Below the pieces are notes generated by a model. That model was not told the origin of the DNA. It saw nothing but the letters and a program-made list of their open reading frames with translations, and searched no databases. Made by a program: the position numbers and the translations under genes. This document shows, one piece after another, positions 13,833 through 30,062 of a stretch of 64,000 nt of DNA; position 1 is the stretch's first letter, and the number at the start of each line of letters is the position of its first letter. The stretch is taken from NCBI GenBank assembly GCA_003233345.1, contig QILK01000073.1, positions 6,413 through 70,412 of the forward strand, given 5' to 3'. The DNA comes from Gammaproteobacteria bacterium. GTDB taxonomy: Bacteria > Pseudomonadota > Gammaproteobacteria > SZUA-21.

Positions 13833-15842
13833 ATGGATATTAAAAAAACAGGTTTTGTGCGTTGCGGGATTATCGGTAGCTTCTTGTTTTTAAGTTTTTC
13901 GTTAATGGCAGCAGATGCGATAAGCAACGCAAAAAAAGCCACCCGTCTTGGACAATATAAAAAAGCATTTGAAATATTCTTATCAGCAGCACAAAAAGGT
14001 AATATCCCCGCTCAGTATCATGTCGGAACATTGTATTTGAATGGCAGAGGAATTAAAAAAGATATTAATGCTGGTGTAAAATGGACTCAGCATGCTGCGA
14101 ATGATGGTTATCCGCGAGCCCAGTATTATCTGGGAACGTTATATAATAATGGTGAACATGTAAAGGTTAATGTCAAGCTAGGAAAAAAGTGGCTGGGAAA
14201 AGCCGCTAAACAAGACTATGCACCAGCGGTCGCTAAGCTTAACGAACTGGATGAAGCGCCAGTGCATGCCCATCAGAAAAAATCGCAAGTGATGCAAGGG
14301 ACTCGCGAAGATAAAATTATTGTGGCTGTTCGCAGAGATAAACTGGATACAGTCAAAATATTACTTAGTTCAGGCGTTTCGGTCGACACCGTTGATACAG
14401 CCAGTCACAAAACGTTATTAATGATTGCGGCAGAAAAAGGGCATAATGATATTGTGTCTTTCCTATTAAAAAATCGGGCCGATGCGAGCAAAAAAGATAA
14501 AACAGGCGGAACGGCGCTTAACCATTCAATACGTAATAATCATACCAAGGCTGCGTTCCTTTTAATTCAGTGGGGTATTAAAATTGATGAACCTAACATC
14601 TATGGTCAGACGCCACTGATTATATCTGTTAAAGCTAAAAAGCTTTTACTGGTCAAAGCATTGGTCGCGAAAAAGGTTAATCTTAATAGCGTCGATAAAA
14701 AGGGTAACACCGCTCTTGACTATTCTCGTATGCTCGAACGGAAACAGATAGAGAAATTTTTATTGGATCATAAGGCGATCGCAAAAAGTACCTTGTCTAT
14801 TGTTCGCACTAACAGTAGCAATATCACCCGTGTTACGCCAACTTATAAAAACTGGACTTTATTGCTGGAGGCTTCCTGGCGAGGACAGGAAGGTTTGGTT
14901 AGCAGATTGTTAAAAAAAGGTGTGAGTATTAATAGCACCGACGAAGATGGTTATTCTGCGCTTATCCGTGCATCCTGGAAAGGGCATTTGCACATCGTGG
15001 AGATTCTGGTTGATGCCGGTGCGGATATTAATTATAAGCAAAAAAGAGGGTTGACCGCACTAATGCTGGCGGCAAAGCATAATCACGTAGAGGTCGTTAA
15101 TTATCTGCTAGCGAAAAACGCCAATGTTGAGCTACGGGATAATTCGGGGTCTAATGCCGTTATTATGGCCACAAAAAATAACAGCATAGATTCACTCAAG
15201 CGTCTGATCCGTGCCAAAGCCGATTTAAACACACGCGATAAAAGTAAACTAACGGCGCTTATGTGGGCGTCACAGAATAATAGTGTCACCATCAGTAAAA
15301 TGCTTGTGCATGGTGGTGCTCGAGTGGATATGCATGATAATAAAAGACAGGTTGCCTTGTGGCACGCAGCGCTCGCTGGATCAGAAAGGGCCTTTGATTA
15401 TTTGATGACAATAAGAATTGATATCAATAGTAAAAACAACGAAGGTGATACATTGTTAATGCGAATGGCCACTTCAGGTAAAGTGAGTATTGTTCGAAAA
15501 TTAATTAGGCGTGGTGCATCAGTAAGGCTAAAAAATAATATTGGTGATACGGCGTTAATGGCTGCCAGCGGGAAAAATAGACTAAAGGTAGTGCAAATAT
15601 TATTAACAGCCAGGTCTGATGTTAACGTAAAAAATAATATTAATAATACTGCGCTGATGATCGCGTCCAAAAAAGGCCATAGTCAGATGGTCAATTTATT
15701 GTTAAAGCATAAAGCCAGGGTCAGGATTCGCAATAAAGACAAAAAAAATGCAAGGGAACTGGCTCAGCAGGGTGGATTCAAGCGTATTGCCAAAATATTA
15801 GAAAAACATGAAAGCAATGGCGGGTTATTCGGTATTTTTTAA
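13833..15842 (+). CDS. Secreted Sel1-repeat / ankyrin-repeat fusion protein
   Basis: 669 aa with a signal peptide (FLFLSFSLMAADA). About 4 Sel1 repeats (AQYHVGTLYLNGRGIKKDINAGVKW; AQYYLGTLYNNGEHV...), then at least 12 ankyrin repeats with the recurring G-TALM-A---GH---V--LL--GA-VN pattern. Confidence 0.8.
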   Translation: MDIKKTGFVRCGIIGSFLFLSFSLMAADAISNAKKATRLGQYKKAFEIFLSAAQKGNIPAQYHVGTLYLNGRGIKKDINAGVKWTQHAANDGYPRAQYYLGTLYNNGEHVKVNVKLGKKWLGKAAKQDYAPAVAKLNELDEAPVHAHQKKSQVMQGTREDKIIVAVRRDKLDTVKILLSSGVSVDTVDTASHKTLLMIAAEKGHNDIVSFLLKNRADASKKDKTGGTALNHSIRNNHTKAAFLLIQWGIKIDEPNIYGQTPLIISVKAKKLLLVKALVAKKVNLNSVDKKGNTALDYSRMLERKQIEKFLLDHKAIAKSTLSIVRTNSSNITRVTPTYKNWTLLLEASWRGQEGLVSRLLKKGVSINSTDEDGYSALIRASWKGHLHIVEILVDAGADINYKQKRGLTALMLAAKHNHVEVVNYLLAKNANVELRDNSGSNAVIMATKNNSIDSLKRLIRAKADLNTRDKSKLTALMWASQNNSVTISKMLVHGGARVDMHDNKRQVALWHAALAGSERAFDYLMTIRIDINSKNNEGDTLLMRMATSGKVSIVRKLIRRGASVRLKNNIGDTALMAASGKNRLKVVQILLTARSDVNVKNNINNTALMIASKKGHSQMVNLLLKHKARVRIRNKDKKNARELAQQGGFKRIAKILEKHESNGGLFGIF

Positions 15843-15903: not shown

Positions 15904-16971
15904 ATGAGTATTACCTATAACAAAAAAAAGGAAAGATTAACACCGATAGTGCGTGAGCATTCTATAGAGCAGGTTTCACAGCCTCCGCGGGTTTCAGAGG
16001 CTTCACAAGGTTTAGCCGATAAGCTTCCCGACACCGCAAGCAAGCCACCAAAGAAAACCACGCAAAAGAAAACCAAACAAAAGCAAACAAAGCAAAAGAA
16101 AAAGCGCCCCGAATCAGTCATGCTTAAGTTTTTTACACTGGCATTTACTGCGCTTGTTTTATATGTGCTCTTCGATGGCTGGGTTAACCGGGTTGATGAG
16201 CGGTTTCTTCCCAATAAAGGCAGGGGGCTTTACTACGGTATTATTGGTGCGGCCATGATGGTGTTGTTATTGTTATATCCTGTCAGAAAGCACATGAGGT
16301 TTTTTAGAAAGTGGGGGAGGGTAACCTACTGGTTTCGGGCGCATATGATGCTGGGGATTATGGCACCGGTTTTGATATTGTATCATTGTGATTTTAAGTT
16401 GGGTTCATCTTGGAATAGTTTTGTGGCTTTAATGTCGATGTTTCTTGTTGTTTGTAGCGGCATTATCGGAAGATTTATATACCGACAAGTACATAATTTA
16501 AAAAATAGTCATCACTATACTTATGACCAAATGCGCAAAGTACTGGCGACAGAGAAATCAATTTTTGATCAAAGTTTCAAGTTGTCGGACGAGGCTATTA
16601 GTTTAATCAACAACTTTGAACTTTATTTGGGTAAGAAAAAGGGGGTTTTAGCGCATCTGATCTCGTTACCCATTATACACATGAAGGCCAAGGAGTATTC
16701 TGTCCGTTTAATATCCTTGATAAGGAAGCAGGTTTATAGCTCCCCTGAGTATCGCAATTTACCTCGACGTGCAAAGAAAAATATGTTTTTGGAGTATAAG
16801 GTGCTGGTGGATCGATATTTTAAAAATATTCGACGAGCAGCAAACTATTCGATTTACGAAAAACTATTTTCTTTATGGCATGTGTTGCACTTTCCGCTAT
16901 TTATCCTCCTGATATTTAGCTCTGCGCTGCATATTATTATCGGTTTTATGTATGGCTATATTCAATTCTAA
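15904..16971 (+). CDS. Integral membrane protein with polybasic N-terminus (hypothetical; first gene of the cytochrome cluster)
   Basis: 355 aa. The N-terminal about 70 aa are soluble and lysine-rich (KPPKKTTQKKTKQKQTKQKKKRP). Four or more hydrophobic helices follow, with conserved His (RAHMMLGIMAPVLILYHCDF), then a C-terminal soluble segment and a last TM helix. Confidence 0.55.
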   Translation: MSITYNKKKERLTPIVREHSIEQVSQPPRVSEASQGLADKLPDTASKPPKKTTQKKTKQKQTKQKKKRPESVMLKFFTLAFTALVLYVLFDGWVNRVDERFLPNKGRGLYYGIIGAAMMVLLLLYPVRKHMRFFRKWGRVTYWFRAHMMLGIMAPVLILYHCDFKLGSSWNSFVALMSMFLVVCSGIIGRFIYRQVHNLKNSHHYTYDQMRKVLATEKSIFDQSFKLSDEAISLINNFELYLGKKKGVLAHLISLPIIHMKAKEYSVRLISLIRKQVYSSPEYRNLPRRAKKNMFLEYKVLVDRYFKNIRRAANYSIYEKLFSLWHVLHFPLFILLIFSSALHIIIGFMYGYIQF

Positions 16972-17050
16972 TGATCGTTGCCAAGTTATAATTAATGGAA
17001 AGTAATTAAATGACGGCTCAATTGTGGTAAGTGATATCGTTAGAGCTAAA

Positions 17051-18619
17051 ATGTCTATTTATATTAAAAAATTTTTGACGATAGTCTTAATACTGTCCTC
17101 TTTTATTTCACTCAATGCATTTGCTGACCGGGTCGAAGCGTTTGTGATGCCGGGTGAGGTGATTAAAGGGCATGCCAAGCTGGAAACCAATTGTGTCAAG
17201 TGTCACAAACGATTTGATAAGAAAGCACAAACTCGATTATGTCTGGATTGCCATGATAAAATAGACGCTGTTATGAAAAAACGTAGTGGCTTTCATGGAA
17301 AATCACCGATTGTTAGGAAGAACCTGTGTAGTGCGTGTCACACTGAGCATAAAGGCCGCGATGCTGATATCATCAAGTTGGATAAACGTAATTTTAATCA
17401 TAAATTCACCAACTTTCTACTTAAAGGCCAGCATAAGAAACTTGATTGTAACAGTTGTCACCAAGCCGGTAAGAAATATACAGAGGCAAAATCGACAGTT
17501 TGTTATGGCTGTCATAAGAAAGATGACAAACACAAATTACACCTGGGTAAAAAGTGCGAAAAGTGTCACACGGAACAAAAATGGAAAAAAACCAAGTTTG
17601 ATCATGATAAAACCAAATTTAAGCTGACCGGAAAACACAAGGAAATTGTATGTGAAAGTTGTCATGCTAACGAGCGATATAAAGGTATCCCAACGAAGTG
17701 TGCAACTTGTCATAAGATTAATGATGTTCATAAGGGTAAATTAGGCGACAAATGTGACGAGTGTCATACCACCAAAAGTTGGGGGAAAATGTCATTTGAT
17801 CATGATAACGAAACTGAATTTCCGATACGAGGAAAGCATAAACAACTGAAATGTAAGGCTTGTCATAAAAAAGACCCCAAAGACGAGGAACTTGCAAAGC
17901 AATGTTACGCCTGCCATAAAGTTGACGATAAACATAAAAGTAATTTTGGCCAGAAATGTCAAACGTGTCATAGCGAAAAGGGGTGGGATCACTCGAAGTT
18001 TGATCATGACCGGGATACTAAGTTTCGATTGAAAGAAAAGCACACCAAGGCAGATTGCACAGATTGTCATAAAAAACCTTTGTACAAAACCAAGACCAGC
18101 AGCAAATGTTATAGTTGTCATAAAATCGATGATAAACACAAAGGCAGTCAGGGTAAGAATTGCCAGAAATGTCATAACGAAAAAAATTGGAAATCAAAAA
18201 TTGCCTTTGATCATGATTTTACTAAGTTCCCGCTGGTTGGATTACATGCGCTGGTAAACTGCAAAGAATGTCATACGCAGGAAAGTTTTTCCGCTACCAA
18301 AAAAAGCTGTATCAGCTGCCATAGGAAAAAGGATGTACATAAACTAAGATTGGGGACTTTTTGTGAATTATGTCATACCCCAAATGGATGGAAAATCTGG
18401 AATTTTGATCATGACCGGCAAACTGAATATCCATTAAAAGGTAAACATAAAGGTCTTAATTGCATTAAATGTCATAAACGTCCCGTGAACAAAAAGAGTA
18501 TAAAGTTGGACGCAAACTGTTCAAATTGTCATAGTCAAGACGATCCTCATGATGGAAAGTTTGGTAGCAGTTGTGCAAGTTGCCACAAAGTGTCTTCTTT
18601 TAAGGACATAGATATTTAG
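17051..18619 (+). CDS. Multiheme c-type cytochrome: 21 CxxCH motifs in seven triheme c7-like modules, lysine-rich
   Basis: The track ORF starts at GTG 17024, but ATG 17051 gives a classical signal peptide (MSIYIKKFLTIVLILSSFISLNAFA). I hand-counted 21 CxxCH motifs. There are seven repeats of about 72 aa, each shaped like FDHD-T-F-L-GKH----C--CH ... C--CHK-DD-HKG--G--C--CH. My count gives about 98 Lys (about 18%). Confidence 0.85.
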   Translation: MSIYIKKFLTIVLILSSFISLNAFADRVEAFVMPGEVIKGHAKLETNCVKCHKRFDKKAQTRLCLDCHDKIDAVMKKRSGFHGKSPIVRKNLCSACHTEHKGRDADIIKLDKRNFNHKFTNFLLKGQHKKLDCNSCHQAGKKYTEAKSTVCYGCHKKDDKHKLHLGKKCEKCHTEQKWKKTKFDHDKTKFKLTGKHKEIVCESCHANERYKGIPTKCATCHKINDVHKGKLGDKCDECHTTKSWGKMSFDHDNETEFPIRGKHKQLKCKACHKKDPKDEELAKQCYACHKVDDKHKSNFGQKCQTCHSEKGWDHSKFDHDRDTKFRLKEKHTKADCTDCHKKPLYKTKTSSKCYSCHKIDDKHKGSQGKNCQKCHNEKNWKSKIAFDHDFTKFPLVGLHALVNCKECHTQESFSATKKSCISCHRKKDVHKLRLGTFCELCHTPNGWKIWNFDHDRQTEYPLKGKHKGLNCIKCHKRPVNKKSIKLDANCSNCHSQDDPHDGKFGSSCASCHKVSSFKDIDI

Positions 18620-18939
18620 AAAAGGAGTATGCGTGTAGAAATAGAATATATAAGTTGTGCTTGGATTAATATTACTTTATATTAGACGCGTGTGGTTTTT
18701 TCACACCTCATAAAAATTGTTAGTGGTATATGAAGGTAGATCAGATACCGCTATTAGAGAGGTAAAGCAATAATATAAAATTGAATAGTTAAATGATTTA
18801 TTTAAGACTCTATGCTAGCAACCGAAATTTAGTGTGTATTACGCTTATGGACGAAATGAAATTATCAAAAATGTAATTTCATAAATACACAAATAATTAA
18901 CTGGGATAGGATTTCCCACAAAATAAAAAGCGATATCAA

Positions 18940-20688
18940 ATGGACACTTGGGAAAGGACGCTGTGCAGATTGCATTTGAGGGGCTATCTTAAGTTCCTAG
19001 TGCTTGTCCTGCTAACCTTTACCTTTCTCGTTATCTCAAATCCAGTTTCTGCTAAAAAAGTCACTCAGAAATTTAACCACGACAAAACCGGGTATACACT
19101 TGAAGGTATACATGTCTACGCGGATTGTGAAAGCTGTCATGCGCGTGGAATTTTTAAAGGCACACCTAGAACCTGTCAAGGTTGTCATGCACAAGCCGGA
19201 CGTATTACTGCTACACGAAAACCGATAAATCATATATCGTCATCTGCCGACTGTGGCCAGTGCCATACATCAACGGCTTGGAAACCGGCGAAAATTGATC
19301 ATTCAAAAATCACGGATTCCTGTAATAGTTGTCACAACGGCACAACAGCTACGGGTAAATCAAAGAATCATATTACCACCAATGCACAGTGTAACGTTTG
19401 TCATAGTTCACGTGCCTGGGTTCCGGCAAACTTTAATCATAGTACTATCACCAGTGGTTGTATTAAATGTCACAATGGCACAACCGCGATTGGGAAGACA
19501 AAAGGCAAACATCCGCCCTCGAGTAATAGTTGTGAGAGTTGTCACACGATCAATTCGTTTAGCTTTAATCATACCAATGTAAGGGGCGATTGCTTTAGTT
19601 GTCATAATGGTACGACCAGTGGCGGCAAGAAAAGCGCACGGCACGTCGTTAGCGACAACCGTTGTGAAGTTTGCCATAAGAATAATCGTGCTTGGACATT
19701 TACTCACGGTTCAGGCATCACCGGGTGTAGCAACTGCCACTCGGGCCAGACAAAAGGAAAGCAAAAAGGTGCCAAGCATATTGTTACCGTAGCGAGTTGT
19801 GAATCTTGCCATAAAAGTACCAGTACATGGACGTTTGATCACAGTAACGTAAAATCTGGATGTACAAATTGCCACCGGGGACAAACAGCCGGTAGGCAGA
19901 TAAACCCAGCTACTCATGTAAAAGTGGCGCCAACAGTAGATTGCGCGGTTTGTCACGGCAGTAATACATCATGGACTGTCAATGTCGTGGTAAACCATGC
20001 GAGTTTTACTGGTACTTGTAGCGGATGCCACAACAAGAACGCGACGCATATGCCTACTTCCAATAGCTGTGGTGGTTGTCATAAAACAACAAAAGGTGGA
20101 TTTCTAAAAGCAAATACCAATGTCGATCATCGGCAAATTACCGTTTCATGCCAGACTTGTCATACTGGCAAATATGCCACCTCAAAGAAAAGTACAACAC
20201 ATGTTGCGACGACTAACGCCTGTGCAAATTGTCACAAGTCGACTGCCCAAGGTGGTTGGCCAACGAATATAAAGATGGATCATACGCAATTGGTCGGTGC
20301 GGGTGCCTGTGCTACCTGTCATAAGACCGGTGGTGTTGGGACACCAAAGCCGCAGGTACATATGAATACCACACTGGCATGTGATATTTGCCACGACAAG
20401 ACCACGACTTGGGCTATCAGGTCGATCACTTACACCCATCAGGCCGGATTGACTCAAGGTTGGTTTAAACATGGTTCGCTTACGTCTTGTATAGACTGTC
20501 ATGCTTCCAATGGCCTTGTGCAATGGGAAACCGGTCTCTATAAGAAGTCGTGCGCTGGTTGTCATGCCAGGCAGTACGAACCGGAAAATGACCATTTACC
20601 ACCGATTACTTCGATAGAGGCTAATAAACATTGCGGTGGTACTGTACCAGGTGGTACTGGCTGTCATGGTAGAAATCGAGGGTTTTAA
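18940..20688 (+). CDS. Multiheme c-type cytochrome: 21 CxxCH motifs, Thr/Asn/Gly-rich
   Basis: 582 aa with a hydrophobic signal-like segment (LKFLVLVLLTFTFLVISNPVSA). An in-frame TTG near 18976 with a GGA before it would give a shorter, cleaner signal peptide. I hand-counted 21 CxxCH motifs. CxxCHNGTT(A)xGK and NH/KH(x5-7)CxxCH units recur, supplying the distal His needed for bis-His haems. Confidence 0.85.
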   Translation: MDTWERTLCRLHLRGYLKFLVLVLLTFTFLVISNPVSAKKVTQKFNHDKTGYTLEGIHVYADCESCHARGIFKGTPRTCQGCHAQAGRITATRKPINHISSSADCGQCHTSTAWKPAKIDHSKITDSCNSCHNGTTATGKSKNHITTNAQCNVCHSSRAWVPANFNHSTITSGCIKCHNGTTAIGKTKGKHPPSSNSCESCHTINSFSFNHTNVRGDCFSCHNGTTSGGKKSARHVVSDNRCEVCHKNNRAWTFTHGSGITGCSNCHSGQTKGKQKGAKHIVTVASCESCHKSTSTWTFDHSNVKSGCTNCHRGQTAGRQINPATHVKVAPTVDCAVCHGSNTSWTVNVVVNHASFTGTCSGCHNKNATHMPTSNSCGGCHKTTKGGFLKANTNVDHRQITVSCQTCHTGKYATSKKSTTHVATTNACANCHKSTAQGGWPTNIKMDHTQLVGAGACATCHKTGGVGTPKPQVHMNTTLACDICHDKTTTWAIRSITYTHQAGLTQGWFKHGSLTSCIDCHASNGLVQWETGLYKKSCAGCHARQYEPENDHLPPITSIEANKHCGGTVPGGTGCHGRNRGF

Positions 20689-20759
20689 TTAGAGAACGTA
20701 TATCAATTGGATCACACGGCGGTTTAGTAACAACTAGAGACTAAATAGAGCGTATAAAC

Positions 20760-23216
20760 ATGAAATCAGTCATAAGAATAGTATTGGCTTTTAGTATAAC
20801 GGTACTGGGTATCGTTAGTGGTCAAGCGCAAACTGTTACTGAAGAGTTTAACGTTTTAAAAACGCTGGAAGCACGCATTAATATTGCTGTCTCTGAATTT
20901 ACGATACATTTTAACCTGCCCGTAAACTACTTGGGTCATTCGCCAACAAAAGAAGGCAAACACATTATTATTCGTGTTGCCCCAATCGGTCGAAACCCCC
21001 GGGATGTAACCGGATTTACTTCAAGTACCGCTTTGAATAATCCAATGAGTTTTGGTGGAAGGGAAGTTTTGTCCTGGACCGCGACCAAAGAGCTGCCTTT
21101 AACGGAAGTGGAATATGAAGGCACCAATATTGGTGGACCGATTATTGAAGTCAGTTTCACGCGTAGTGTTAAATACAAAGTTGTCCCAAGTAAGGATTTG
21201 CGTAGTCTGACTATTCTGGTCGAAAACGAGAAGCAGGCAAAAAGCACATCTAAGCATAACTACTTGCTTAACCTGTCGACTTCGGGAAAACCCTTTGATG
21301 TTACCAGTTTGGACACTGGAAAATTTCCAGAAAACTATGTTTTTTTCCCTACCCATAGTGTAGTCGACAACAAGTCCGTCAATCACCTGAAAGTGGGGTT
21401 TTTTAAAACCCCAAGGGATATTCGTGAAGCCCTTAAAAAGTTAAAACCCTATTATCCAGATGCAAAGGTAATGTTATCAACGGATGAGGATATAAAGGTT
21501 GCAAAACAATACCAGCGAGATCAGAAGCTAATCGCTAAAACAACACCACTAAAAACCCCCGCCCCCGGAAAAGAATCACCGGCGATAGCAAGTAATTCGC
21601 GCGATATTATGGAAAAGGCAAAGTTTACTTTGCTAGAGGGCAATTATGATAAAGCAATTGAGCAATATACCGTCGTGATTCAAAAAGATCCGAATGGCCA
21701 ATATGCACAGGAAGCCCAGGAATACCTGGGATTAACCCGGCAGCGTAATAATCAGGTTGCCCATGCAATTGCAGAATACAAAAAATATTTGCAAAAATAT
21801 CCGCAAGGCGAGGGCGCCACGCGTGTTAAGCAGCGTCTTAATTCCTTATTAACCGCGTCACATGATCCGCGAGGGAAATTACCGGGGACTACGACGGAAG
21901 ATAAAAAATCACCTTGGCGGCTCTATGGAAATGTTTATGGTAATATCAGGTACGATAATTCTAAAACCGTTATCAAGGCTACTAATACTAAAATCAAAAA
22001 TCAGACGACCACTTATGTTACCAGTTTAAATGCGACTGCCAGAAAAAGAACAGAAAAAAGTGAGACAAAAATACGATTCACTGGTATATATCGAGATGCG
22101 GATGATGGTACAAATCGCAATAACAGAAGTGGACGCGTTAACTATTTTTATGTAGACCATAAAGATAAAGTGCGTAATTATGGTTACCGTATTGGTCGTC
22201 AGGCAAAAAGTAGCGGTGGCGTCTTGGGCCGTTTTGATGGCATATCGGTGGATTATAAAATTAGTTCGCGTTATAAGGTTAACTTCGTTTCTGGTTACCC
22301 CGTCAATTTTACCAAATTTGGACAAATTGAAACTAACCGTTATTTTTATGGTGTTAACACTGACATTTCCACCAAGAATAAATATTTGACTTTTAATGTA
22401 TTTGCTATCAATCAGGTTATTGATGGTATTAGTGATCGGGAGTCAATCGGTGGCGAGGTTCGCTATATGAACCCGAAGCACTCATTGTTTGCATTGGTTG
22501 ATTACGACCATTCTTATCAGGAATTAAATACTGTCTTCGTTTCCAATAACTGGCGCTTTAAAAATAAGGCGGTTGTTAATGTAACTTATGATTATAGAAG
22601 AAGCCCAGTATTAACAACTAGTAATGCGTTGCAAGGGCAGACGGAAGGATCAATAAAAGAGCTTTTACGTCGACTTAGCGAGAGCCAGATCAGACAGTTA
22701 GCCCGTGATCGTACGGCGACCTACAAATCGGTATCGGTGGGAGGCACTTATCCACTTGCCCATGACTTGTATCTAAACGGAAATGTTACGGTTGCTGAGC
22801 TCGAAGGTACAGTTGCGTCGGGTAATGTTGCGGCTGTTCCTGATAGTAGTCAAGAATATTTTTATTCACTACAATTAATAAAAAACAGTTGGTTAAAGGC
22901 CGGTGATGTATCAATATTTGGTATTCAGTTTGCTGATGCAACAACTTATCAGCGGACATCCTATTCGTATGGCATCCGCTATCCTCTAACACCCAGAATC
23001 CGAATTCGTCCAAAGTTTGAATATGATGTACAGGATATAAATGACGGCACTGAAGTCACTACCTACCGCCCCTCTTTACGTGTTGATTATCGTGCGAGCA
23101 ATAGATGGCGTTGGGAACTGGAAAGCGGCTATTCATATGCTGAAATCAGGAATTCTGCCAGTGACAGCGATCAGACCGATTACTTTATCAGTATGGGCTT
23201 TATTTATGATTTCTAA
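20760..23216 (+). CDS. Outer-membrane protein: N-terminal domain, TPR-like repeats, C-terminal beta-barrel (putative porin partner of the cytochromes)
   Basis: 818 aa with a signal peptide (MKSVIRIVLAFSITVLGIVSGQA). TPR-like helical repeats lie in residues about 290-370 (YDKAIEQYTVVIQKDPNGQYAQEAQEYLGLT...AIAEYKKYLQKYPQGEGAT). The C-terminal about 440 aa show alternating hydrophobic/polar amphipathic beta-strand periodicity and end in ...GFIYDF, the aromatic C-terminal residue used as a BAM signal. Confidence 0.7.
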   Translation: MKSVIRIVLAFSITVLGIVSGQAQTVTEEFNVLKTLEARINIAVSEFTIHFNLPVNYLGHSPTKEGKHIIIRVAPIGRNPRDVTGFTSSTALNNPMSFGGREVLSWTATKELPLTEVEYEGTNIGGPIIEVSFTRSVKYKVVPSKDLRSLTILVENEKQAKSTSKHNYLLNLSTSGKPFDVTSLDTGKFPENYVFFPTHSVVDNKSVNHLKVGFFKTPRDIREALKKLKPYYPDAKVMLSTDEDIKVAKQYQRDQKLIAKTTPLKTPAPGKESPAIASNSRDIMEKAKFTLLEGNYDKAIEQYTVVIQKDPNGQYAQEAQEYLGLTRQRNNQVAHAIAEYKKYLQKYPQGEGATRVKQRLNSLLTASHDPRGKLPGTTTEDKKSPWRLYGNVYGNIRYDNSKTVIKATNTKIKNQTTTYVTSLNATARKRTEKSETKIRFTGIYRDADDGTNRNNRSGRVNYFYVDHKDKVRNYGYRIGRQAKSSGGVLGRFDGISVDYKISSRYKVNFVSGYPVNFTKFGQIETNRYFYGVNTDISTKNKYLTFNVFAINQVIDGISDRESIGGEVRYMNPKHSLFALVDYDHSYQELNTVFVSNNWRFKNKAVVNVTYDYRRSPVLTTSNALQGQTEGSIKELLRRLSESQIRQLARDRTATYKSVSVGGTYPLAHDLYLNGNVTVAELEGTVASGNVAAVPDSSQEYFYSLQLIKNSWLKAGDVSIFGIQFADATTYQRTSYSYGIRYPLTPRIRIRPKFEYDVQDINDGTEVTTYRPSLRVDYRASNRWRWELESGYSYAEIRNSASDSDQTDYFISMGFIYDF

Positions 23217-24742: not shown

Positions 24743-25510
24743 ATGAATTCAAAACTTATTATTTTGTGGTTAAGCCTGGTTTTTTCATCGTACAGCCATT
24801 CGCAGAATTTATCTAATTCAACGGTGCCCGTTGCTGATAGGCTTCCTTCGGTGTCTGTAAATGACACGTCTAAGAGCAAACTTAATAGCGTTAAAGATAC
24901 ACTTAGCCCGGCTCAGTCTTATCTCAGTTGGAAGGCAGCAGCAGAAAAGGGTGATACTAATTCTCAATATAATCTGGGTCTTGTTTATGAGCAAGGATTG
25001 GGTACAGCCGTTGATCTGCAACAAGCAGCACGTTGGTATAAAAAGGCATCCATGCAGGGACACGCTGTTGCAGCATATAATCTAGCCACAATGGCTCACC
25101 AGGGCCACGGAATGAAGGCAGATATAAAAATGGCGAAGCATTGGTACGAATTTGCTGCCAAAAAAGGCTATTTACTTGCTCAGGCCAGTCTCGGGTTTTT
25201 GTATGCAACAGAAAACACACCTTTTACCGATGTAAAGAAAGCGGTTTACTGGTTTAACAGAGCGGCCAAGCTCGGTCATCCAGAGGCTCAGTTTAATCTT
25301 GGTATGATGTATTCTACTGGCAGAGGAATAGAACTTGATTATATCAAAGCTTATGCTTGGTTCAATGTATCAGGATTTAACCGTTACAAAAATGCGATTG
25401 AAAGTCGAAATTTTGCGGCCGCCCGGCTTACTGTAAAGCAACTTGAATCAGCCCAGGCTCTATCGAATCACTATCGCGAACTCTACTTTAAGAAGCAAAC
25501 GCCTAAATAG
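24743..25510 (+). CDS. Secreted Sel1-repeat protein
   Basis: 255 aa with a signal peptide (LIILWLSLVFSSYSHS). About 5 Sel1 repeats (SQYNLGLVYEQGLGTAVDLQQAARWYKKA; AAYNLATMAHQGHGMKADIKMAKHWYEFAAKKG; AQFNLGMMYSTGRGIELDYIKAYAWFN). Confidence 0.75.
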   Translation: MNSKLIILWLSLVFSSYSHSQNLSNSTVPVADRLPSVSVNDTSKSKLNSVKDTLSPAQSYLSWKAAAEKGDTNSQYNLGLVYEQGLGTAVDLQQAARWYKKASMQGHAVAAYNLATMAHQGHGMKADIKMAKHWYEFAAKKGYLLAQASLGFLYATENTPFTDVKKAVYWFNRAAKLGHPEAQFNLGMMYSTGRGIELDYIKAYAWFNVSGFNRYKNAIESRNFAAARLTVKQLESAQALSNHYRELYFKKQTPK

Positions 25511-27200: not shown

Positions 27201-30062
27201 TTATTTATCATCGCCGACCGGTTTTTTGACTGAATTCGAAGATGCGTTCTGGTCTTGAACGGCGCTTCTAAATCCCGGTACGGGTTTACTTGCTTTCTTT
27301 TCGCTGACAATATTTTTTACCTTATTATCGTCGCTAACAATGGCTTTTTCTGGCTGCTTTGCGATCTTATTTACCACTTCCGGCTTGCTTGCTTTTGCAC
27401 TATTGGCCGTTGTGGCTGTTTCTTTCACAGATGCACTGGCATTGCTAGTACCAGCGTTGTTTTTTACTGCCGATCTAAAACCAGAAACGGGTTTAGGCCT
27501 GGGTCTTGTCGCTGCATCAGATTGCTGTACTGGTTTTTTTTCAACAGGTGCGGATTTTTCAACCGGTTTTAGTTCTACCGGTTTGGGGTCTGCTTTTACT
27601 GCAACCGGTTTAGGCGTCGATGCCTGAGTTGTATTTTGCGATGACGTAGACGGAGAAACATTATTTTCGACAACTGTCGTACTCAATGGCTTCACCTTTT
27701 GGCCCCGATCAGCCGGTTTATTATTTGAATCATTTTCACCTTGTGTCGTATTGTTACCCTGATTGCGATTACCTCGTGCATCTTTTCTGTAATTACTACG
27801 TTGACGGTTATCTCTGTTCGGGTTGCGCTGCCTGTTAGTGGGTCTTGAATTATCATTAGTGGGCCTTGAATTACCATCAGCACGTTGATCGCTTGTTTCG
27901 TTTGACTTTGCTAGCGTATTAGCCTGGTTATCACTTTGTTGAGGCCTTTGGCTGGCAGTTTGCTGATCGTTACTATTCGCGTCACTAATATTATTTTGGT
28001 TACGATTATTCTGATTACGATTATTCTGGTTGCGACTATTCTGATTACGATTATCGCGTTGGCGGGTATTTTGTTGCGATCGCGATCGTGCCTGGCGATT
28101 CGAATTTTGGCTACGCCTGTTATTATTTTGCTGGGAATTATCAGACGGGCTAGTATTCTGGTTTTGGGCGGGTTGATTGCCACTATTTTGATTATCCGTT
28201 GCGTTGGCGTTTCTATTGCTATTACCCTGTGCATTTTGTGCATTTGAATCGCGATTGTTATTTCTGTTTCCAGGGCGACGATTTCCAGACCGGTTATTCT
28301 GGTTTCGGCGCGAGCTTGGACGCCGATTTGAATTTTTTCGCTTTGCTGGCGTCACAACCTTTTCACCAAACAATAAAATCCAGATTCGTTTGAACAGTCC
28401 AACCTGCGGACCGTTGCGAGACCGATTTTTGGCGGGTTTCGGTGCCACGGGTGGGGAGGGTGGTGACACAGTCGATACGGCGGCCCTGTCTTCTGTATAT
28501 TTTTGCAAACTAGAAACATTAGTATCGGGACTAGATTCATCTTCTTCCAGTTCCATTTGATAACTGGCTAATGCACCTTCCTCTGCCTGATCTTCTGCGC
28601 GCATTCTTTTTAGTTCAAAATGCGGCGTATCAAGACTGGGGTTGGGTATAAGCACGATGGAGATGTTTTGTCGGCTCTCAATATCATGAACCATATCGCG
28701 TTTTTCATTGAGTAAAAAAGTAGCCACTGACACGGGTAACTGGGCAATGATTCGGTGGGTGTTTTCTTTTATAGCGTCTTCTTCAATAATACGCAAAATG
28801 GATAGTGCCAGCGATTCGGTACCACGAATTTGTCCATGCCCACTGCAACGTGGACAGGAAATTTGTATGGATTCTCCGAGAGAAGAGCGTAGCCGTTGTC
28901 GGGACATTTCCAGCAGTCCGAAACGTGATATGCGGCCAACCTGAACACGGGCCCTGTCCATTTTCAGTGCCTCACGTAAGCGGTTTTCCACTTCACGCTG
29001 GTTTTTGTTCTGCAGCATATCGATAAAATCAATGACAATCAGGCCACCCAAATCCCGAAGACGAAGCTGGCGTGCAATTTCGTCTGCAGCCTCCAGGTTG
29101 GTATTCAGCGCGGTTTCTTCGATATCCGAGCCTTTTGTTGCTCGTGATGAGTTAATATCGATCGATACCAGTGCTTCCGTATGATCGATCACAATAGAGC
29201 CACCAGAATGCAGGCGGACCTGGCGGTTATAGGCGGATTCAATTTGGTTTTCAATCTGAAATCGATTGAAAAGCGGAACTTTCTCGTTAAAAGGTTTAAG
29301 CTTGTGCAGATTATGTGGCATGACCTGCTTGATAAAGTCAGAAGCCTGATTAAATAACTCAGTATTATCGATTATTATTTCACCAATATCATTACGCATT
29401 AAATCACGCAGTGTGCGAATAATGACGTTACTTTCCTGGTAAATTAAAAACGGTGCTGATTTTTCCTTAGAAGCAATTTCAATCGCATTCCAAAGATGAA
29501 CCAGATATTCCATATCCCATTGTAATTCTTCGACTGATCGGCCGACACCCGCCGTGCGAACAATGACACCCATATCCTGAGGAATTTCCAGCTGGCTTAG
29601 GGCCTCGCGTATTTCACTACGGTCGTCACCCTCGATACGGCGTGATACGCCGCCTGCACGTGGATTATTGGGCATGAGCACAAGAAAACGCCCAGCCAGG
29701 CTAACAAAGGTTGTTAATGCTGCACCTTTATTACCACGTTCTTCTTTTTCGACCTGAACGACTAGTTCCTGACCTTCTTTGATAGCATCTTTGATATTAA
29801 GACGCTGACCAGGTACAAATTCACTGAGAAAGTAACTTCGAGATATTTCTTTTAGCGGCAGAAAACCATGGCGCTCAGCACCATAGTCGACAAAAGCAGC
29901 TTCTAGACTGGGTTCAACGCGTGTTATTTTTCCTTTGTATACATTAGATTTTTTTTGCTCTCTTGACGGTGTTTCGATATCCAGGTCAATTAATCTTTGA
30001 CCATCCACAATTGCAACGCGCAACTCTTCGTGCTGAGTTGCGTTTACCAGCATTCTTTTCAT
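27201..30062 (-). CDS. rne: Ribonuclease E
   Basis: 953 aa. The N-terminal about 500 aa form the catalytic domain ([24 protein letters not shown]; S1 and DNase I-like subdomains; CPRCSGHG zinc link). The C-terminal half is an N/Q/R/S-rich low-complexity scaffold. Confidence 0.9.
27998..28057. repeat. 4 x 15-bp tandem repeat inside the rne scaffold region (encodes NRNQN repeats on the minus strand)
   Basis: ggttacgattattct / gattacgattattct / ggttgcgactattct / gattacgattatcgc. Confidence 0.7.

Follow-up and report, generated by a model that had tools for sequence, protein, structure and literature searches.

A probable PCC3-type outer multihaem cytochrome encoded in a marine gammaproteobacterial contig

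The second of two adjacent multihaem cytochrome genes in a 64,000-nucleotide stretch of gammaproteobacterial DNA (contig QILK01000073.1) probably encodes the outer multihaem c-type cytochrome of a PCC3-type porin-cytochrome conduit. The whole stretch is referred to as the window, coordinates are window positions unless another locus is named, and the two adjacent cytochromes are called cyt1 and cyt2. The protein belongs to a family already described in the literature (PCC3, 2017) and is not a new kind of cytochrome. Its identity is settled by its neighbourhood, since its own matches to Pfam and NCBIfam models are only of the generic multihaem sort. The genes for an inner-membrane protein (IMP), cyt1, cyt2 and an outer-membrane protein lie in this order on a single strand (15904–23216, plus strand):

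15904–16971, plus strand: IMP, the PCC3 inner-membrane protein, 355 amino acids (aa), a putative dihaem-b transmembrane electron carrier
16330–16386, 16456–16470 and 16876–16932, plus strand: the IMP motifs W143x3Hx13H, S185GIIG and W325x3Hx13H, respectively, located by regular expression
17024–18619, plus strand: cyt1, 531 aa, PCC3 periplasmic multihaem cytochrome with 21 CxxCH motifs, 91.5 bits with Cytochrome_C7 (Pfam)
18620–18939: spacer between cyt1 and cyt2, 320 bp, AT-rich
18940–20688, plus strand: cyt2, 582 aa, with 21 CxxCH motifs and one C-x9-CH, probable PCC3 outer ("extracellular") multihaem cytochrome
20760–23216, plus strand: PCC3 outer-membrane protein, 818 aa, with a signal peptide, a 22-strand barrel and a YDF end

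Membership of the PCC3 family

The PCC3 conduit was described as consisting of an IMP, a periplasmic cytochrome, an extracellular cytochrome and a large porin (He et al. 2017, Front Microbiol 8:1584, PMC5566968). The IMP of PCC3 and PCC4 has about 300 aa and five transmembrane (TM) helices, with SGxxG on TM4 and Wx3Hx13H on both TM3 and TM5. The periplasmic cytochrome has about 21 haem motifs (median 21, range 18–27) and a very low residue-to-haem ratio, while the extracellular cytochrome is rich in Thr, Ser, Ala and Gly and contains haem-bearing repeats, its haem number varying by genome, with a median of 34 sites. The porin was predicted to have up to 42 transmembrane strands (all PMC5566968). 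Carriers include Sideroxydans lithotrophicus ES-1, Leptothrix cholodnii SP-6 and Uliginosibacterium gangwonense (PMC5566968, PMC10734462).

In the window, the four genes are co-located. The IMP contains all three motifs (W143FRAH-x13-H161, S185GIIG and W325HVLH-x13-H343), at the expected TM3, TM4 and TM5; a hydropathy scan resolved TM1, TM2, TM4 and TM5, with TM3 below the threshold. The paired Hx13H motifs are characteristic of dihaem-b electron carriers. The periplasmic cytochrome corresponds to cyt1, with its 21 CxxCH motifs at 23.7 aa per haem, and the Thr/Ser/Ala/Gly-rich, repeat-built cytochrome of variable haem number corresponds to cyt2. The outer-membrane protein is modelled as a large beta-barrel, its 22 strands being fewer than the up to 42 predicted in 2017.

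Searched with tblastn, the locus of U. gangwonense DSM 18521 (L028) shows 38% identity to cyt2, 41% to cyt1, 30% to the IMP and 27% to the outer-membrane protein; the alignments of the cytochromes and of the outer-membrane protein cover most of their length and that of the IMP the C-terminal 250 aa or so. Cassettes were compared in a sample of 82 related loci, and neighbouring genes also in 48 complete cassettes. Loci L001, L002 and L028 keep the gene order, as do most of the 82 related loci. An IMP homologue (found by tblastn) is located upstream of the cytochromes in most loci, a homologue colinear with cyt1 is present in 69 (40–57% identity over aa 34–531, mostly with 21 motifs), and a homologue of the outer-membrane protein directly follows the cyt2 homologue in most. 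Only two relatives exceed 50% identity in the outer-membrane protein. A scan of a species-representative genome collection was run with an alignment of the N-terminal module of cyt2, the full-length alignment being too little conserved, and places relatives of this module in at least 597 species-level genomes (597 of the first 600 candidate stretches were confirmed).

Scores of cyt2 with sequence models are as follows:

Cytochrome_C7, PF14522 (Pfam): 91.6 bits, cut-off 24.8, over eight stretches
MtrC/MtrF domain II/IV, PF22113: 54.8 bits, cut-off 30, E 1e-14
DmsE/MtrA family, TIGR03508: 73.3 bits, cut-off 192.2, aa 58–251, haems 1–9
OmcA/MtrC family, TIGR03507: 25.4 bits, cut-off 209.3
c7-type, TIGR04257: 28.8 bits, cut-off 40

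When the cyt2 family profile is compared with the PDB, entry 3OV0 is the best match (E 4e-20), and structures of MtrC, MtrF and OmcA follow at 1e-18 to 1e-13; the nearest solved sequences are GSU1996, MtrC, MtrA and HmcA (1e-20 to 1e-17). Known decahaem families were considered and rejected. For OmcA/MtrC, TIGR03507 stays below its cut-off, a lipobox is lacking and only the pentahaem model PF22113 passes; for MtrA/DmsE, TIGR03508 reaches 73.3 bits against 192.2 and covers aa 58–251 only. Hydroxylamine oxidoreductase and the octahaem enzymes were rejected as well, there being no Pfam or NCBIfam match of this kind to cyt2, and the PDB matches of its profile to octahaem nitrite reductase are marginal (1e-5 to 1e-7, about 60 aa). 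The original prediction, made from the sequence alone, had named OmcA/MtrC and hydroxylamine oxidoreductase as examples of well-known families to which homology would count against it. Homology leads to a described family, PCC3, though to neither of these two, which counts against that prediction in spirit.

Within PCC3, the window cassette differs from its relatives in several respects. cyt2 is short: its 21–22 motifs compare with a median of 28.5 CxxCH in the 120 homologues retrieved as the protein sample and with 34 in He et al. Its C-terminal site is C-x9-CH instead of CX3CH or CX4CH. A co-directional gene for an ankyrin/Sel1 protein directly precedes the cassette, a ferredoxin-flavin reductase gene does not flank it, and the host is from a poorly sampled marine gammaproteobacterial lineage.

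Sequence and architecture of cyt2

A regular expression applied to the translations finds exactly 21 CxxCH motifs in the 582 aa of cyt2 and exactly 21 in cyt1, confirming the earlier hand count. Shuffled sequences of mature cyt2 contain a mean of only 0.3 such motifs (maximum 3), so cyt2 is a genuine multihaem c-type cytochrome. It weighs about 58 kDa, and each haem corresponds to about 25 residues. The description as rich in Thr, Asn and Gly agrees with the measured composition (Thr 13.1%, Gly 9.5%, Ser 8.6%, Asn 6.7%), and Thr, Ser, Ala and Gly together make up 38%. Lysine-poor, as it had also been called, it is only relative to cyt1 (7.2% versus 18.5% Lys); the protein is basic, with an isoelectric point (pI) of 9.2. 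Because cyt1, with a pI of 9.3, is basic too, the two are not chemically opposite, contrary to what had been proposed. Net charges are +47 for cyt1 and +33 for cyt2, before two propionates per haem are taken into account.

The following elements are located in cyt2:

18940–19053, plus strand: Sec-type signal peptide, aa 1–38, NPVSA followed by KK, read from the translation
19069–19479, plus strand: N-terminal module, aa 44–180, haems 1–6, homologous to the trihaem repeat of cyt1
19321–20394, plus strand: dihaem array, haems 4–19, degenerate repeats of the type CxxCH-NGTTAxGK-x3-5-H-x6-CxxCH-x4-5-W-x4-6-H-x6
20059–20517, plus strand: MtrC/MtrF-like region, aa 374–526, PF22113 pentahaem domain II/IV
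20632–20667, plus strand: non-canonical haem-type motif C565-x9-C575-H576, followed by the RGF end

The layout of the motifs has three parts: haems 1–3 in c7-like spacing, a degenerate dihaem run (approximately haems 4–19) and a distinct C-terminal module. Checked for a fusion of two genes by frameshift, cyt2 proves intact and colinear with its homologues from the N-terminal FxHxxTG to the C-terminal RGF. The translation does not contain a lipobox. As in cyt2, the mature part of the homologues begins at the FxHxxTG module. The annotated ATG is not preceded by a Shine-Dalgarno-like sequence, and GAAAGGA is located 11 and 17 nucleotides before two in-frame TTG codons. Translation may begin at the ATG or at a TTG; the mature protein is unaffected by the choice, the predicted cleavage site being VSA / KK (after aa 38) in either case.

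The N-terminal module (aa 44–180) is the best-conserved segment of the cyt2 family, as judged by per-window conservation in an alignment of 121 sequences, and has 45–65% identity to 80 genome loci. The profile comparison that had been suggested as a check for common ancestry of cyt1 and cyt2 is positive: with hhalign, the N-terminal family profile of cyt2 matches cyt1 at 98.8% probability (E 9e-17), and BLASTP (E 1e-18) aligns the start of cyt2, KFNHDKTGYTLEGIHVYADCESCHARGIFKGTPRTCQGCH, to a cyt1 repeat, KFDHDKTKFKLTGKHKEIVCESCHANERYKGIPTKCATCH. cyt1 consists of seven trihaem (c7-like) units with a spacing of 16-18-33, and its true start is likely the ATG at 17051. Trihaem spacing is found in cyt2 in the first module only.

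Beyond this module, the recurring units reported earlier are present in a looser form, with Trp at x4-5 instead of x3 and a spacing of H-x5-8. A His precedes 18 of the 21 motifs (H-x5-8-CxxCH), and six motifs have a Trp after them, at x4-5. There are exactly three copies of CxxCHNGTT (aa 128, 174 and 218) and six of the relaxed pattern CxxCH-x-G-x8-14-H. At the DNA level cyt2 contains no internal repeats; the copies are therefore old, and a recent duplication is rejected. The outer cytochrome of Uliginosibacterium contains near-perfect copies of the unit CATCHNGTTAKGKPxNH...CDxCHRTTGWxPATFSH, and NG(T/S) after CH is part of the haem repeat of the cyt2 family across many phyla. Mature cyt2 has 23 His residues outside the haem motifs and only three Met, which fits bis-His ligation of 21–22 haems.

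At the C-terminus there may be one haem more than the CxxCH motifs account for. Mature cyt2 has 44 cysteines, 42 of which are in CxxCH motifs; the remaining two are C565 and C575. After their last CxxCH, 54 of the 120 homologues have CX4CH, 40 have CX3CH and four CX6CH, the rest being mostly truncated or divergent at the C-terminus, and conservation reaches at least 90% in the columns of C565, C575 and H576. The C-x9-CH of cyt2 aligns with the CGDAGCH of its two closest relatives, L002 and L003, from which it differs by a Gly/Pro-rich insertion of five residues. The PCC3 papers include CX3CH and CX4CH, both recognised as motifs for haem attachment, in their counts. Because C565-x9-C575-H576 aligns with the site that is CX3CH, CX4CH or CX6CH in the homologues, the haem total of cyt2, as far as it can be read from the sequence, may be 21 or 22. 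At or next to the C-terminus, the family has a conserved aromatic residue (GGF, SEF, REW or NWD; RGF in cyt2, 20632–20685), which recalls the C-terminal signal of outer-membrane proteins.

Electron path, topology and equal haem numbers

Judged from MtrCAB and the published PCC3 model, a continuous series of bis-His haems would carry electrons between the IMP and the outside of the cell. The order would be the dihaem-b-type IMP, the periplasm-spanning cyt1, the barrel and, outside, cyt2. As a tentative refinement, the five to six N-terminal haems of cyt2 may dock with the barrel or sit inside it, because the N-terminal module is conserved and has an MtrA/DmsE-like match, and because the remainder of the protein is too variable in length to be confined. 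The variable repeat array would extend outward as an insulated wire, its length set by gain and loss of dihaem units. As far as the window shows, electrons may flow either way, inward from Fe(II), a mineral or an electrode that is oxidised or outward to an external acceptor that is reduced. Matches of the N-terminal part to MtrA and of the C-terminal part to an MtrC domain, although weak, were counted in favour of an outer cytochrome. A bolder combination is tentative and, with all its parts taken jointly, doubtful: cyt2 would be MtrA and MtrC in one polypeptide, its five to six N-terminal haems threading the barrel and the remainder forming a fast-changing extracellular dihaem wire (18, 20 and 22 sites among three closely related proteins); a 22nd haem would be attached by ordinary maturation to an unprecedented C-x9-CH; and a dedicated periplasmic ankyrin/Sel1 scaffold, new to porin-cytochrome conduits, would keep the complex together.

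Several points weigh against cyt2 as the outer cytochrome of a working conduit. As late as 2025, PCC3 was described as functionally unverified, with transcript data only, and the extracellular location in the PCC3 literature rests on CELLO and PSORTb predictions only. cyt2 has neither a lipobox nor a recognisable secretion signal beyond Sec, and either cytochrome may fill the barrel. A structure model of cyt2 is of moderate confidence, with a predicted local distance difference test score (pLDDT) of 63.8 and a predicted template-modelling score of 0.33, and a fold search of this model against the PDB gave nothing usable, with a single match at E 6.5. A ferredoxin-flavin reductase, common beside other cassettes, has no match in window positions 1–64000 and none in L002, so the inner-membrane end of the electron chain is unclear here. 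Lipoprotein or PKD-type relatives of cyt2 were considered as support for surface anchoring inside PCC3 cassettes; this was rejected, as they stand alone, outside cassettes.

Such relatives, with a lipoprotein signal and the same repeat type, are located in L083 (7001–9754) and L084 (7001–9925), with a PKD-like domain in L084 at least. One relative of this type is followed by a protein of 1144 aa without a Pfam match.

A rival reading keeps cyt2 in the periplasm, either as an electron store (a capacitor) or as a wire to a soluble partner, with the outer-membrane protein anchoring by its TPR and peptidoglycan-binding-like domains and not forming a sheath. In its favour, cyt2 has neither a lipobox nor a known export signal, and the homology of its N-terminal module is to a periplasmic protein, cyt1; a capacitor role has been discussed in the literature, and the helical insert in the barrel model could plug the pore. 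We consider this unlikely. In most loci the gene directly after the cyt2 homologue encodes a large barrel, proteins of about 14 to 36 motifs are hard to fit into a periplasm of fixed width that is already spanned by a cyt1 of fixed length, and the Thr/Ser/Gly/Asn-rich composition is that reported for the extracellular PCC3 subunit.

Improbable to a greater degree is the strict form of the PCC3 topology, in which cyt1 threads the barrel like MtrA and cyt2, including its N-terminal module, is wholly outside like MtrC. It follows the analogy with MtrCAB and the drawings in He et al. 2017 (PMC5566968) and Hoover et al. 2023 (PMC10734462), and the C-terminal part of cyt2 does match MtrC domain II/IV. 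However, the best NCBIfam match of cyt2 is to the MtrA/DmsE family over haems 1–9, the N-terminal module is the most conserved segment of cyt2, which fits a fixed structural role, and a lipid anchor of the MtrC/OmcA type is lacking. This topology and the favoured one, an outer cytochrome entering the barrel with its N-terminal haems, differ only in which protein fills the pore.

The equal haem numbers of cyt1 and cyt2 had been taken as the mark of a complementary pair, and in its full form, a stoichiometric 21:21 pair of chemically opposite proteins docking haem for haem, this reading is very improbable. Both proteins do have 21 CxxCH and are adjacent in an operon-like cassette, but the equality is not conserved. 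The upstream cytochrome of related cassettes mostly has 21 motifs, 24 being next and 13, 16, 18, 27 and 36 occurring once each, whereas homologues of cyt2 have 8–43 motifs, and 14 to 36 haem sites in total when full-length (n=79); just one of the 79 shares the total of cyt2. In the two closest relatives the canonical motifs number 21/16 and 21/18. When CX3CH and CX4CH are included, the outer cytochromes of these relatives have 18 and 20 sites, and all differences among these two proteins and cyt2 amount to whole dihaem units. A rule of parity, by which site totals would always be even, was rejected (40 even versus 39 odd). Gallionellaceae PCC3 likewise combine 21, 24 or 27 haem motifs with 10–35 (Hoover et al. 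2023, PMC10734462). The numbers thus vary independently across cassettes, a 22nd site in cyt2 is probable, and both proteins are basic. The identity 21 = 21 is a coincidence, because a near-fixed number (cyt1) meets a variable one (cyt2). What survives of the pair is that both proteins belong to one cassette and that the published PCC3 model makes one of them periplasmic and the other surface-exposed; the equal counts carry no meaning.

Least probable of all, to a degree that makes it negligible, is a surface cytochrome N-glycosylated on its CHNGTT units: these do account for three of the eight N-x-S/T sites, but eight is the number expected by chance (8.1 ± 2.4 in shuffled sequences) and not the many sequons once supposed, cyt2 has no extended D/E-x-N-x-S/T sequon, the Asn comes directly after the haem-ligating His, within a repeat that is kept across phyla, and no STT3/PglB-type protein or other oligosaccharyltransferase is found among the scanned open reading frames of at least 150 aa in the window, the remaining ones encoding housekeeping functions. 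Of the earlier interpretation as a whole, the pairing and the shared ancestry stand, while the meaning given to equal counts, the chemical opposition and the glycosylation do not.

Neighbouring genes and comparison with known systems

The AlphaFold2 model of the outer-membrane protein has a mean pLDDT of 86.6 and shows a confident 22-strand barrel. Its parts are:

aa 33–155, plus strand: beta-rich domain
aa 168–258, plus strand: alpha/beta domain
aa 278–366 (21591–21857), plus strand: TPR domain
aa 386–818 (21915–23213), plus strand: barrel of 22 strands, with a helical insert at aa 620–650

From the model, the three domains ahead of the barrel would be periplasmic. The first two have no match in Pfam, and SPOR or AMIN appear as precomputed hits on some homologues only. 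Matches of the protein to TPR, BamD and YbgF models are weak, all under the curated cut-offs. A Foldseek search of the PDB with the model returns only generic outer-membrane barrels, AlgE among them, and no specific match to MtrB.

The open reading frame of the IMP begins with a low-complexity extension of about 72 aa, rich in Lys, Gln and Thr (15904–16119, plus strand; KKTTQKKTKQKQTKQKKKRP). Most tblastn matches to IMP homologues start only past this extension, at about aa 50–100, and the real start may be M73 (ATG at 16120).

In L002 and L003 the spacer between cyt1 and cyt2 measures 334 and 186 bp, respectively; in more distant cassettes it is mostly shorter than 100 bp. A consensus scan of this spacer did not find a plus-strand promoter or terminator, and an Rfam search of the whole window gave zero matches. 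A collection of 15 billion proteins contains ClpA and the outer-membrane protein of this contig, but neither cyt1 nor cyt2 as an exact sequence. The cyt1 homologue of L002 (6135–7625) has been mis-called as a minus-strand open reading frame of 484 aa; automated annotation may often mis-call multihaem genes of the cyt1/cyt2 type.

Directly upstream of the cassette is the ankyrin/Sel1 gene:

13833–15842, plus strand: Sel1 and ankyrin-repeat protein, 669 aa, with a Sec signal peptide; Pfam Ank_2 8e-76, Sel1 3e-16

Full-length homologues (25–45% identity) are located within 10 kb of 28 of the 48 complete cassettes: upstream and divergent in 18 cases, downstream and convergent in seven, upstream and co-directional in two. 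The protein is probably a periplasmic accessory or scaffold of the cassette; a literature search found no report tying PCC3 to an ankyrin protein.

The ferredoxin-flavin reductase (about 440–480 aa) looks like the best-conserved neighbour of the cassette, which it flanks in 55 of the 82 loci at 42–59% identity (mostly 47–57%). A hydrophobic segment at its N-terminus is combined with a 2x[4Fe-4S] ferredoxin domain and an FAD/NAD(P) domain resembling thioredoxin reductase and YpdA. Examples are:

L028, 5533–6981, minus strand: ferredoxin-flavin reductase
L001, 15303–16616, minus strand: ferredoxin-flavin reductase

It is not discussed in He et al. 2017 (PMC5566968), and might serve the NOX/FRD-like inner-membrane protein as its partner in the cytoplasm.

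Beyond the cassette, the window and its two closest relatives have the genes for ClpA, infA, aat/ate, a Sel1 protein, a CDF transporter and RNase E in common. Among named sequences, those nearest to the ClpA of the window are from a hydrothermal-vent metagenome (79%), Thiotrichales (75%) and Thiogranum (72%), which places the source, approximately, as an uncultured marine gammaproteobacterium. A second secreted Sel1-repeat protein (24743–25510, plus strand, 255 aa) is encoded a few genes downstream of the cassette, an arrangement conserved in L002. RNase E (27201–30062, minus strand, 953 aa) has a very long low-complexity C-terminal tail, rich in Asn, Gln, Arg and Ser, with repeated units of the NQNNRNQNN type.

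PCC3 is widespread and, for iron oxidisers as for many other bacteria, among the leading candidates for carrying electrons over long distances through the Gram-negative envelope. The window cassette adds a compact example, with 21 and 21 (or 22) haems, and its marine gammaproteobacterial lineage is sparsely sampled. Comparison with related loci adds several features to the description of PCC3: a periplasmic partner of near-fixed length beside an outer wire that varies by dihaem units, an outer cytochrome ending in a conserved non-canonical haem site, a 22-strand barrel with periplasmic TPR and other domains, and ankyrin/Sel1 protein and ferredoxin-flavin reductase genes that travel with the cassette. 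These features leave the classification unchanged, cyt2 being an ordinary member of the described family.

The cassette follows the same logic as MtrCAB of Shewanella (6R2Q), with a periplasmic multihaem cytochrome, an outer-membrane barrel as sheath and a surface multihaem cytochrome, and cyt2 weakly matches both the MtrA/DmsE family and MtrC domain II/IV. It differs in having 21–22 haems per protein instead of 10, and a dihaem-b-like inner-membrane protein encoded in the cassette itself takes the place of CymA. Its 22-strand barrel carries periplasmic TPR and other domains, whereas that of MtrB has 26 strands. MtrC and OmcA carry a lipid anchor, unlike cyt2.

The GSU1996-type c7-polymer of Geobacter (PDB entry 3OV0) resembles the cytochromes of the cassette as a linear chain of c7-like modules in which the haems are bis-His and the residues per haem are few. 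Seven such trihaem units make up cyt1, while cyt2 past its first module has a dihaem repeat and not a trihaem one. GSU1996 itself is a soluble periplasmic 12-haem protein and is not encoded beside a porin.

The exporters AlgK/AlgE, PgaA and BcsC have a periplasmic TPR fused or coupled to an outer-membrane barrel, as does the cassette, and pass a linear polymer through it. Their barrels are smaller (16–18 strands) and carry polysaccharide. Sequence kinship with the outer-membrane protein of the cassette extends only to generic barrel and TPR folds, and the resemblance is a lead only.

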